From: Escherichia coli
GTDB lineage: Bacteria > Pseudomonadota > Gammaproteobacteria > Enterobacterales > Enterobacteriaceae
Assembly (NCBI RefSeq): GCF_003790525.1
Contig: NZ_CP033635.1
Strand: one strand, 5' to 3'
DNA length: 64,000 nt
This document shows positions 1 through 3,000 of this stretch, one piece after another. The first letter of the stretch is position 1; each line of letters starts with the position of its first letter. A program made the position numbers.

Positions 1-3000
1 TCGGTTGTTAAGTATCCCATCCCCCGCGCTGCAGCTACTGCCGGCAAGTTCATTTATGATGATGATTACTATTTTTACATTAACCTGCTTGCTGAAAATC
101 AGCTCGATTTGAATCCCGGAGAGAAAACGATTGATGCGCAGATAATGGATCTCGCGGATGAGATTGCCTACGCCGCGCATGACCTGGAAGATGCCCTTAG
201 CAGGAACATGGTCACGATTGAAGATATTGAATATGAGTTTCAGATTTCTGACGAATTCCGGGGAGCGAGGGAACAGTTCAGGGAAATCGTTACTCAGTCG
301 AGAAACACCGCTTTTCAGGCTAACTTACTGAAAACCTCAGAAGAATTTGCCATCATATTCCGCAAGGAGTTAACTTCAAATATTGTCAATCGCCTCGTTG
401 CAGATATTTCTGTAGTAACGAACCTGAATGGTTTTCAGGAACTGGGGTTCGGGAAACTGAATGCGTTATCCGAAGGACTCAAAAAACTTCTCTTTAAAGT
501 CATCATGCGAAAACGTAATATCCTCACCTATGAGTTCAGGGGAAATAAAATAATCAGGGATTTATATGACTTTTACAATGAAGGAGAGAATTATAAATTT
601 CTGCCTCCTGAACTTAAATTCACCTTACCCCAACCAGATTCCTGTATATTTGAAATCAGCAAAAAACGAGCAGTGGTTGACTATATTTCAGGTATGATGG
701 ATACATTTGCAGTCAAGGAATGGGAAACTCACTGTCTGAAGTAACACTGCCGATTACCAGAGGCGCATATTTTCCCGTTATGGTTATTGCGCCTTTATTC
801 CGTTTCGGTGACAGGTTATTTTAAATATTCTGGAAATGCGTTGATGGGCAAGAACAATTACCCTGAAAATAAATACAGGAAATGGTTTTCCACAGCAATA
901 ACATATCTTATTACAGGTGGTTTGTGCTGGTATATGTTGTGGGCATCCGCTATATCTCATTATACTGTTTTACAAAATACGGTACCTGAATGGACAACAT
1001 ATTTTTGCACCGGTATAATCACCGGATCTCTTTCTTTTATTTATGCATTTTATATCCGCACCTTTAACAGAACATTAAAGTCTTTATTAAATGCATTCAC
1101 GGGGGGATTTTGTCTTGGATTTATACTGAGTCCTGATGAATCCCCTAATGATTTTGATAAAAATCATTAGGGGATTCATCAGTGCTTGACCTTGTTTAAA
1201 AGCTGTAATATCGCAATTTACTAACTCAATATCTAAATCCATTGGCTTGGATGTACCTCCTGCCTCAAGGAAGCTTTTTGAAAGCTGTCCAAAATCAATA
1301 GACTGATCAGCTGATTTCTGAGAAATGCTGCATGGAGCATCAACAACAGTTCCGTTAAAAGTTACTTTACCCTGCCCCTGTGGAATAGTTGGAGCAGCAT
1401 TTACACCAAAAGACACCACTGCCATAGCTACCGCACCGGCAATAACCGACTTAATCATAAATAACAACCTCTTTTTCATTACTGAACACACCAGAGATAT
1501 CTGGCAATTTAAAATGACCCGATTACCTTTAATAACCAGATCAATACAAATAATATTCTCGTATTTTCAGGGCAGGTTATTTATCGACAGAATACTGATA
1601 TAACCTGTCTGCTTTCTGATAAGGACTTCTTTTTATCTGTAAGATAACTCCGGAATGCCATCATTCAGTCAAATGCCGACGACTCATCTGTATAATAAGG
1701 TGCAAGCCTTGCTGCAAGAGCATTCAGCCGTATAAGTCTCCCAAGTGTTGTACTGAAATACCCATTATTCATCTGGTATTTCTCGCAGACCTCCTTACGG
1801 GAGTGCCCACCTACCAGATAGTCCTTCATAGCCAGAATGACCCTGTCACTGTGAATAGAAGAAATACCTATCAGTAAAAAAAAATGCATTTCAGACATAG
1901 AGCCGGGCAACAGTACGCTCTCGCGTATATTCAGCAAAAACGCATTTCCTGACCGACTGATGACTTCATGATGCGCCATGTTTCCCCCTTCTGTCGGGCC
2001 CCTGGATATATGCTTCCGGCCCGGAAATACTCTTCACGCAATAAGTTAAATTTAGTTTTTTATGTTGTAAATATTGATTTAAACGATCTTTTAACCCACA
2101 AAATAAAATTAAACTAGAATAAAACACTAATAATAAGAATGCGCTCAGATAAAAACATCATAGTAAATTGAATTTACAGCATAAAAGATCGTCTAAATGC
2201 ATTTTTACGGACTTTCTTTTCACAGAAAAATAAAACGCAAAATGTGATACATATCAAATAAAGCAAATAAAAAGCAAATTCACTAAATTGCACAAATAAA
2301 GCAAACACAGCAAACACAGCAAACACAGAGAATAAAAATACCTTTCCGTTGATAACAGAAAGCATGATTTTTATTATTCGAAGAAACTTTGTTACAGTGA
2401 GATGAGTGAATATATGAAGAATGAAATACTGGAATTTCTGAACAGGCATGATGGAGGGAAAACGGCAGAAATTGCGGAGGCGCTGGCGGTAACGGATTAC
2501 CAGGCCCGCTATTACCTGTTATTACTGGAAAAAGCAGGTATGGTTCAGCGCTCACCATTAAGACGGGGCATGGCAACATACTGGCTTCTGAAAGGAGAGA
2601 AGCAGGCGGGGCAGAGTTGTTCACTTTGCAAACTCTGCCGACCAGTGGTGATCCGTTCGGTGACGGGATTGGCAAGGTAGCCGGGTCCAGCCTGCACGCC
2701 GGCGTGGCGGCCAGGGCCGATGAACGCAAGAAGCTCGAACGGCTGTGCCGGTACATCAGCCGCCCGGCGGTATCCGAGAAGCGGCTGTCGTTAACACGAG
2801 GCGGCAACGTGCGCTACCAGCTCAAGACGCCGTACCGGGACGGCACCACGCACGTCATTTTCGAACCATTGGATTTCATTGCAAGGCTGGCCGCCCTGGT
2901 ACCGAAGCCCAGAGTCAACCTAACCCGCTTCCACGGGGTGTTCGCACCCAACAGTCGGCACCGGGCGTTGGTCACGCCGGCAAAACGGGGCAGGGGCAAC

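Follow-up and report, generated by a model that had tools for sequence, protein, structure and literature searches.

How did a truncated papA gene come to lie next to a dGTPase-like gene, and did the latter displace the fimbrial genes? The window analysed here, a 64,000-nt stretch of Escherichia coli contig NZ_CP033635.1, begins inside the pheV-tRNA genomic island, which is the site of the dGTPase gene. A sequence-only reading of the window had proposed that an HD-domain dGTPase-like gene and a small membrane-protein gene might be a defence module that replaced the pap structural genes. We found its observation partly confirmed and its interpretation partly supported. The explanation that we consider probable as a whole combines a solo accessory defence dGTPase, a cut and unrelated 189-aa gene and a Tn10 scar at their junction with papA.

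The first frame of nt 1–744 (plus strand) is open and encodes the C-terminal 247 residues of a 410-aa HD/HD_assoc protein, WP_000271619.1, so that the 3′ 60% of the gene is present. Translation, Pfam, PADLOC and TIGR01353 identify this stretch as the 3′ part (codons 164–410 and stop) of an accessory dGTPase-family gene, as the sequence-only reading had called it, and the translation is identical to residues 164–410 of the full protein from L001. Codons 1–163 lie outside the window and were taken from a 99.9% identical genome, where upstream extension recovered the full 410-aa gene. On the full protein Pfam places HD at residues 74–219 and HD_assoc at 320–404. All catalytic residues were found, namely the H..HD..D metal ligands (H77, H107-D108 and D216) and the HE dyad (H116, E119). 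The sequence-only reading had assigned an HD motif, but H77, H107-D108, H116 and E119 are all outside the window; of the metal ligands only the last, D216, falls within it, together with the HD_assoc domain. The protein scores above the cut-off of TIGR01353 for dNTP triphosphohydrolases (316.5 versus 152.35 bits) and matches the PADLOC dGTPase model PDLC02374 over profile positions 28–369 of 395 (E-value 2e–109, 364.6 bits). It does not reach the cut-off of the anti-phage NCBIfam model NF041026 (284.1 versus 400 bits) and is likewise below that of NF003701 (252 versus 383).

We compared WP_000271619.1 with known members of its superfamily. The E. coli housekeeping Dgt (505 aa, PDB 4x9e) belongs to the same HD dGTPase superfamily, but is matched at E-value 9e–22 over only ~90 residues. 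The housekeeping model NF003429 gives 156.1 bits where 405 are required, the gene lies in the pheV island and not at the dgt locus, and the region is carried by 334 of 5,426 complete E. coli genomes (205 with an intact 189-aa gene, 126 with the junction described below). Housekeeping Dgt was rejected on these grounds, and the supposition that the gene is accessory stands. The closest solved relative is PDB 9vwa, a 402-aa 'deoxyguanosinetriphosphate triphosphohydrolase-like protein' that aligns end to end (E-value 1e–114, 56% identity over aligned columns); in entries 9vwc and 9vwg the catalytic His equivalent to H116 is changed to Ala. A literature search returned no paper for these three entries, the string matches being unrelated, and no experiment on WP_000271619.1 or a close relative. 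CloA, the dGTPase of the Clover defence system, is a member of the same superfamily under the control of nucleotide signals (PMC12265719); its structures match only at ~1e–25, over the HD core. Clover itself was rejected, as the gene has no CloB nucleotidyltransferase neighbour and is flanked instead by an IS3-family element and the 189-aa membrane-protein gene.

A further comparison is with the anti-phage enzymes of Tal et al. Like WP_000271619.1, these are single-gene HD-domain dNTP triphosphohydrolases with the same H..HD..D site and HE dyad, and they too are encoded in mobile islands near a type I restriction-modification system. Sp-dGTPase (9p8w) is matched at E-value 5e–48, with 130 identities in 332 aligned columns. 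The resulting ~39% is below the working boundary of Tal et al., who found strong defence-island association above 45% identity to Sp-dGTPase (bioRxiv 10.1101/2021.04.26.441389). At 410 versus 462 aa our protein is also shorter, and the Sp-clade insertions are absent from it. WP_000271619.1 was not among the enzymes tested in that study; its E. coli G177 enzyme clearly differs from our protein and, with the other tested ones, belongs to the Sp-like clade (Table S5 of bioRxiv 10.1101/2021.04.26.441389).

The surroundings of the gene and of its relatives point to a defence or mobile-element setting. The same island arm carries hsdRMS (a type I restriction-modification system), an AAA ATPase matching PDC-M55A/NsnB/AriA and a PD-Lambda-2_B-like XRE/M78 protein. 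A ThyA-like/aGPT-Pplase3 pair lies ~1.5 kb from the dGTPase gene, with a MazG-like gene nearby. Outside E. coli we examined four relatives at 75–81% identity, each of which is a single gene. The Proteus relative adjoins a prophage integrase, that of Edwardsiella is inside a lambdoid prophage, that of Klebsiella adjoins a 2,092-aa NACHT protein and that of Pantoea adjoins SIR2_2. The family is scattered over genera, and the clade may move between prophages and islands of Enterobacterales.

Judged from its sequence, WP_000271619.1 is an accessory member of the dGTPase family and belongs to the type that serves in phage defence; the earlier assignment to the anti-phage type is thus borne out by the PADLOC match and by the type I system in the pheV island. 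Protection from phage through dGTP depletion has been shown for dGTPases of this superfamily (bioRxiv 10.1101/2021.04.26.441389; PMC12265719). The protein is best read as a putative solo anti-phage dGTP-depleting enzyme, because its 75–81% relatives sit alone in prophages or beside NACHT/SIR2 genes. By homology, the HD-domain enzyme would act as a homo-oligomer and split dGTP into deoxyguanosine and triphosphate. Its most likely role would be that phage infection switches it on and phage DNA replication is starved of dGTP. This would add one more, putative, clade to the dGTP-depleting defence enzymes, with little import beyond annotation.

The second component of the proposed module proved to be no true gene. 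An ORF of 127 aa at 787–1170 is indeed open and encodes the three helices that had been noticed, but the 127-aa membrane protein itself does not stand. RefSeq annotates no CDS there, and the intact homologous gene has its start codon at ATG 844 and a product of 189 aa. Both homology and DNA identity to the intact locus end at nt 1132, after 96 codons, and the last 12 codons and stop (1168–1170) of the ORF are read from an IS10 remnant. The 127-aa ORF is therefore an artefact. Its retained part is 96% identical to the intact homologues P0001/P0006 (189 aa). An AF2 model of the 189-aa protein has helices at residues 7–38, 49–71 and 78–106 followed by beta strands, and the conserved columns of the family are in residues 110–189. 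Since the three helices are kept and the conserved beta-rich C-terminal domain is lost, 844–1132 (plus strand) is a pseudogene made of the 5′ half (96 of 189 codons) of the membrane-protein gene, as identified by homology to the intact one. For ORF calling, the lesson is that a 'membrane protein' can be a pseudogene arising from a transposon scar. The spacer between this pseudogene and the dGTPase gene (745–843, plus strand) contains, by RNA folding, a 9-bp-stem hairpin and then a U-rich tract, which may act as a weak terminator for the dGTPase gene; the folding is not significant (RNA fold z-score –0.63), and a pattern scan did not list the hairpin.

The 189-aa protein has no match in Pfam, NCBIfam, PADLOC or PHROGs; none of 22 family members matched Pfam at E ≤ 0.001, and PADLOC gave nothing at E ≤ 1. 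Foldseek against the PDB returned only insignificant OB-fold-like matches (best E-value 0.04). Structural relatives in AFDB are uncharacterised, apart from one labelled S-2TM-beta (a CBASS-type effector). An S-2TM-beta membrane effector was rejected, as this label is the sole support and neither Pfam nor PADLOC models match. In the neighbourhoods examined, relatives of the protein have DUF6678 as a neighbour, close a CDI toxin array or lie among metabolic genes, and none adjoins a dGTPase. The CDI neighbourhood, a single one, would suggest at most a possible CDI-immunity role. The gene is a cargo gene unrelated to the dGTPase.

Between the broken 189-aa gene and the broken papA lies a 50-bp palindrome (1133–1182, of no assigned strand) of two IS10 outside ends, recognised by arm complementarity and IS10-end match. 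Its 23-nt arms (1133–1155 and 1160–1182) form a perfect inverted repeat, 100% complementary, on either side of a 4-nt spacer. The two arms are the only IS10-end matches in the 64-kb window, with none expected by chance, and an arm is identical to the outside end of the intact IS10 in strain GPEC1054. The same palindrome is present in hundreds of plasmids. Foster et al. reportedly described such a Tn10 'nearly precise excision' remnant in 1981, and the element has that form, with two inverted IS10 outside ends in ~50 bp. The sequence-only reading had passed over this junction element. Unlike in a simple Tn10 excision remnant, the flanks are not a 9-bp target duplication, the left one being TACTGAGTC and the right one TGCTTGACC. 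The right-hand 9 bp, which flank the papA fragment, are the Tn10 target duplication, which recurs in GPEC1054 as the reverse complement GGTCAAGCA beside the 3′ portion of papA.

At the identical papA junction GPEC1054 retains Tn10 intact, and the remainder of the pap operon follows on its far side. Nucleotides 1146–3505 of the window are 100% identical to the GPEC1054 end of intact IS10 and papA′. The left arm of the junction is 98.5% identical to islands with an intact 189-aa gene, and the right arm is 97.5–100% identical to GPEC1054 versus only 91% to those islands. We suggest that Tn10 would have entered papA of a pap operon in a pheV island, duplicating the target TGCTTGACC. Its left end would then have come to abut the 189-aa gene at codon 96, either by a Tn10/IS10-promoted deletion or by recombination between island variants, with loss of an hns-like gene and the pap structural genes. 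Near-precise excision of Tn10 would finally have left the palindrome behind. As the scar flanks are not a target duplication, the rearrangement must be placed between insertion and excision, and it is for this reason that we infer the order of the steps. The reciprocal Tn10 junction, with the 3′ half of the 189-aa gene, is absent from the 5,426 complete E. coli genomes, and it was therefore not possible to demonstrate a simple insertion with subsequent recombination.

With a Tn10 scar linking the broken 189-aa gene to the broken papA, this is an ordinary rearranged E. coli genomic island. A Tn10-associated rearrangement joined two island segments, and no defence module put itself into pap. The idea that a defence module displaced the fimbrial genes is contradicted by the nature of the join, an excision scar of Tn10/IS10, and by the papA that Tn10 still splits in GPEC1054; what looks like a replacement of the pap genes came about as a side effect of Tn10 activity. 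None of the events at the neighbouring junction touched the dGTPase gene.

Two genes side by side might still have worked together. In E. coli islands with both genes intact they are on the same strand, ~100 nt apart, and the membrane protein, with transmembrane helices, then a beta-rich domain and one AFDB relative labelled S-2TM-beta, might be the effector or regulator of a two-gene defence system of which the window has a crippled copy. We regard this as highly improbable. The E. coli copies all seem to belong to a single island lineage, and their adjacency hence amounts to one observation. Elsewhere the pairing, which the earlier proposal had presupposed, does not recur: none of the four dGTPase relatives (75–81% identity) has the membrane protein as a neighbour, and the relatives of the latter are never by a dGTPase. 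Neither Pfam nor PADLOC recognises the partner, and 126 genomes retain the dGTPase with the partner truncated. It is also very doubtful that the clade is a solo anti-phage dNTPase with a trigger or regulation unlike those of Sp-dGTPase and Clover, maybe once paired with the 189-aa protein in E. coli; if that pairing were true, the 126 Tn10-scar genomes would be natural 'uncoupled' mutants.

The enzyme might, on the other hand, be cargo for housekeeping or sanitising of the nucleotide pool with no defence role, possibly serving the ThyA-like and aGPT-Pplase3 thymidine-modification genes. The identity under the 45% threshold of Tal et al. and the score under the NF041026 cut-off are consistent with this, as are the closeness of the ThyA-like pair and the MazG-like gene. 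Yet the pair is divergent, with an IS element between it and the dGTPase gene, and it is absent around the four close relatives, all in prophage or defence-island settings; the scatter of the family across genera argues in the same direction. E. coli, moreover, has its own Dgt. Such a role is unlikely in our view. A different concern is raised by the IS3-family element found, in copies where this stretch is annotated, ~150 bp 5′ of the dGTPase start codon, so that expression of the gene is not assured. The insertion could have cut off the promoter and left a silent relic carried along by the neighbouring resistance block; shorter E. coli products (394, 337, 282 and 253 aa) have been recorded, and the adjacent gene is already a pseudogene. 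However, the frame is intact over its 410 aa, the exact protein occurs on at least 1,000 contigs, and a conjugative NDM-5 plasmid carries a whole copy of the segment. A promoter also fits in 150 bp, and IS ends can supply one. A relic is thus very unlikely, and we retain the solo accessory defence dGTPase.

To the right of the scar, the papA 5′ fragment (1183–1458, minus strand) comprises 92 codons by translation, a 21-aa signal peptide and ~71 mature codons, and is annotated by RefSeq as a pseudogene without C-terminus. That papA is truncated had been seen correctly; the cut is at 1182/1183 and not at ~1195, and ~71 rather than ~88 mature codons remain. The pap remnant further includes an intact papB-type regulator (1665–1979, minus strand), an ORF that RefSeq lists as WP_000930062.1 of the adhesin biosynthesis transcription regulatory family. 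It is followed by a papI-type regulator (2402–2680, plus strand; FaeA/PapI family in RefSeq), found among the ORFs, whose 3′ end extends into a truncated ISCR2 and overlaps its transposase fragment. This ISCR2 is the start of a floR-tet(A)-strAB-sul2 resistance block. Within the pheV island of ST167-type and related E. coli, the dGTPase gene is carried along with this chromosomal multidrug-resistance block.

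Apart from the dGTPase gene, everything in nt 1-1194 is debris of transposon activity. The 127-aa membrane protein that the sequence-only reading had paired with the dGTPase (ORF 787-1170) is not a gene: homology to the intact 189-aa locus ends at nt 1132. Its closest relatives are 189-190 aa long (P0001/P0006 of E. coli, P0003 of Pantoea) and align only to its first three quarters. In the alignment with an intact locus, collinearity extends from the dGTPase stop, past ATG 844, as far as nt 1132 and is lost completely beyond it, so that 96 of 189 codons are kept; 12 more codons (PDESPNDFDKNH) and the stop come from foreign DNA. 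Although small, the 189-aa family is genuine: 1.84 billion proteins yield 46 representative clusters. Conservation is concentrated in its C-terminal domain, which bears a PGP motif and two invariant cysteines and is exactly the portion absent in the window. In the confident AF2 model (pLDDT 91), a beta-rich domain comes after three long helices; the three helices noticed earlier are therefore the membrane anchor of a truncated protein. Profile libraries (Pfam, NCBIfam, PADLOC, PHROGs) assigned the 189-aa protein no function, a PDB fold search gave nothing significant, and its AFDB relatives are uncharacterised, one being labelled S-2TM-beta. Its relatives lie next to DUF6678 (Pantoea), terminate an array of CDI orphan toxins, or are surrounded by metabolic genes. 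Co-occurrence with a dGTPase elsewhere was not borne out: none stood beside a relative in the neighbourhoods inspected, and the pairing is thus limited to one E. coli island lineage. In two loci (L020:4069-5582, L021:4024-5582) a 193-aa relative is the last gene of an orphan CdiA-CT toxin fragment/CdiI array, a position that may point to an immunity-type function of the family.

Between this broken gene and papA lies an IS10 scar that had been overlooked. Nucleotides 1133-1182 consist of two perfectly inverted 23-nt arms separated by 4 nt (CTGATGAATCCCCTAATGATTTT / AAAATCATTAGGGGATTCATCAG); the 64-kb window has no further match, and none is expected by chance. The repeat is the IS10 outside end, and a 50-bp palindrome of two outside ends is the established remnant of Tn10 'nearly precise excision'. 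The papA truncation, already recognized, is real; 92 codons remain, flanked by TGCTTGACC. Window nt 1146-3505 are 100% identical to strain GPEC1054, where the end of an intact IS10 (annotated ISVsa5) is followed by papA'-papB-papI-ISCR2; this IS10 forms the right arm of a complete, tet(B)-carrying Tn10. There the 3' part of papA, flanked by GGTCAAGCA (the reverse complement of TGCTTGACC), is found past Tn10 and a Tn5393-like block; after it come papH, papC and so on up to papG-II, the series reaching as far as the pheV integrase. With Tn10 between the papA parts and the flanks matching, Tn10 therefore first split papA within a pheV pathogenicity island. GPEC1054 has a second 50-bp IS10 outside-end palindrome (L025:9231-9280, NZ_CM142793.1) between papA and strAB, adjoining the papA 3' part, with GGTCAAGCA as target duplication; that island therefore underwent at least two Tn10/IS10 excision events.

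The left flank of the scar in the window, TACTGAGTC, does not duplicate the right one, hence a second event must have linked the left end of Tn10 with the 189-aa gene. Compared with intact islands, the 3' half of that gene and an hns-like gene are missing. None of the 5,426 complete E. coli genomes has the reciprocal junction, which fits a one-sided Tn10/IS10-promoted deletion but falls short of proof. Possibly, recombination between island variants joined the two segments instead. The left arm shares 98.5% identity with islands whose 189-aa gene is intact; the right arm reaches 97.5-100% with GPEC1054 but only 91% with those islands. Right of the resistance block, the proQ-AlpA-YfjJ backbone (14586-17117) is likewise only 91% identical to theirs, against 98.5% for the dGTPase arm, which makes the island a mosaic of two variants. 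The earlier proposal of a defence module displacing the fimbrial genes inverted the causality: papA was split by Tn10, and an IS10 scar sits at the junction.

The dGTPase itself is an accessory enzyme, correctly recognized from its C-terminal half. Nucleotides 1-744 are open in frame 1 from base 1, the translation ending in ...DYISGMMDTFAVKEWETHCLK, and the first 1,200 bases are 99.9% identical to many E. coli chromosomes (megablast). The full-length protein annotated in strain W2-5 has 410 aa (WP_000271619.1). Because the window begins at its codon 164, the last part of the HD domain (with metal ligand D216) and HD_assoc fall inside; H77, H107-D108 and the H116/E119 dyad are encoded before the window and are preserved in the reference copy. 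The protein matches the PADLOC dGTPase model (2e-109) and passes TIGR01353 (316 bits, cut-off 152). It is not the housekeeping dgt: it fails the E. coli Dgt equivalog (156 bits, cut-off 405), and its locus is the pheV tRNA island. It also fails the curated anti-phage dGTPase models NF041026 (284 bits versus cut-off 400) and NF003701 (252 versus 383). Among solved structures, 9vwa, 9vwc and 9vwg come closest (402-aa protein; E 1e-114, 56% identity), compared with 5e-48 and ~39% identity over aligned columns for the experimentally validated anti-phage Sp-dGTPase (9p8w), ~1e-25 for Clover CloA and 9e-22 for E. coli Dgt. Tal et al. cloned six dGTPases, one from E. coli G177 (bioRxiv 10.1101/2021.04.26.441389); all belong to the Sp-like clade, but the island enzyme falls outside it, and our literature search found no experiments on its own clade. 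Judged by sequence, it adds a new though ordinary member to a known defence family, already picked up by existing defence-finding models and occurring in hundreds of sequenced genomes.

The family is scattered across Enterobacterales and also beyond. All four relatives examined for neighbourhood (75-81% identity) are single genes in a mobile or defence setting, adjoining a prophage integrase (Proteus), a 2,092-aa NACHT protein (Klebsiella), a SIR2_2 protein (Pantoea), or a DUF4365 gene in a lambdoid prophage, between exo/RecT genes and the repressor region (Edwardsiella). These settings are the best evidence here for the dGTPase as a putative solo defence gene, which by analogy with Tal et al. 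and the Clover work (bioRxiv 10.1101/2021.04.26.441389; PMC12265719) would deplete dGTP upon infection. Upstream of the window, the E. coli pheV island includes hsdRMS (type I R-M), an AAA ATPase with defence-type hits and, ~150 bp from the dGTPase start, an IS3-family element. In the W2-5 copy (L001), 14293-16108 holds an 87-aa MazG-like gene matching phrog_24212 and a 360-aa XRE/M78-peptidase protein resembling PADLOC PD-Lambda-2_B (8.7e-30), with no PD-Lambda-2 A or C partner detected there. Between the latter and the dGTPase, 2-4 kb ahead of window nt 1 and on the minus strand (L001:16111-18032), this bacterial island has a pair of phage-type thymidine hypermodification enzymes, ThyA-like (thymidylate-synthase-like, 326 aa) and aGPT-Pplase3/ADDT (314 aa). 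The left arm (L001:282-6612) also holds candidate defence genes: a PDC-M09A-like protein paired with a WYL regulator, and the AAA ATPase, which matches PDC-M55A/NsnB/AriA and, with a 297-aa partner, immediately adjoins hsdS. GCA_964037335.1 has two copies of the dGTPase/189-aa segment (L008:8669-9853, L009:8669-9853), one adjoining the fec operon; both encode a 394-aa variant without an HD_assoc hit, which suggests gene decay in some lineages.

The region is present in 334 of 5,426 complete E. coli genomes, intact across the breakpoint in 205 and with the scar/papA junction in 126. The rearranged segment also occurs on one IncI-gamma/K1 NDM-5 plasmid, and was therefore copied there from the chromosome. 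On this conjugative plasmid (pNDM5_LS003, NZ_OP290546.1, 11512-16158) the dGTPase, scar, papA', papB and papI are followed by floR and adjoin aac(3)-IIe and blaNDM-5; this copy lacks 27 bp, apparently inside the palindrome. For ST167 strain Sanji, the island and an 8.9-kb resistance cluster were described without mention of dGTP (PMC6392093). The resistance block at window 2617-14241 corresponds to that cluster (truncated ISCR2, DUF3363 gene, floR, LysR fragment, tet(A)/tetR(A), strAB, sul2, transketolase fragment, IS1); its insertion separates papI from a frameshifted proQ/finO-like gene.
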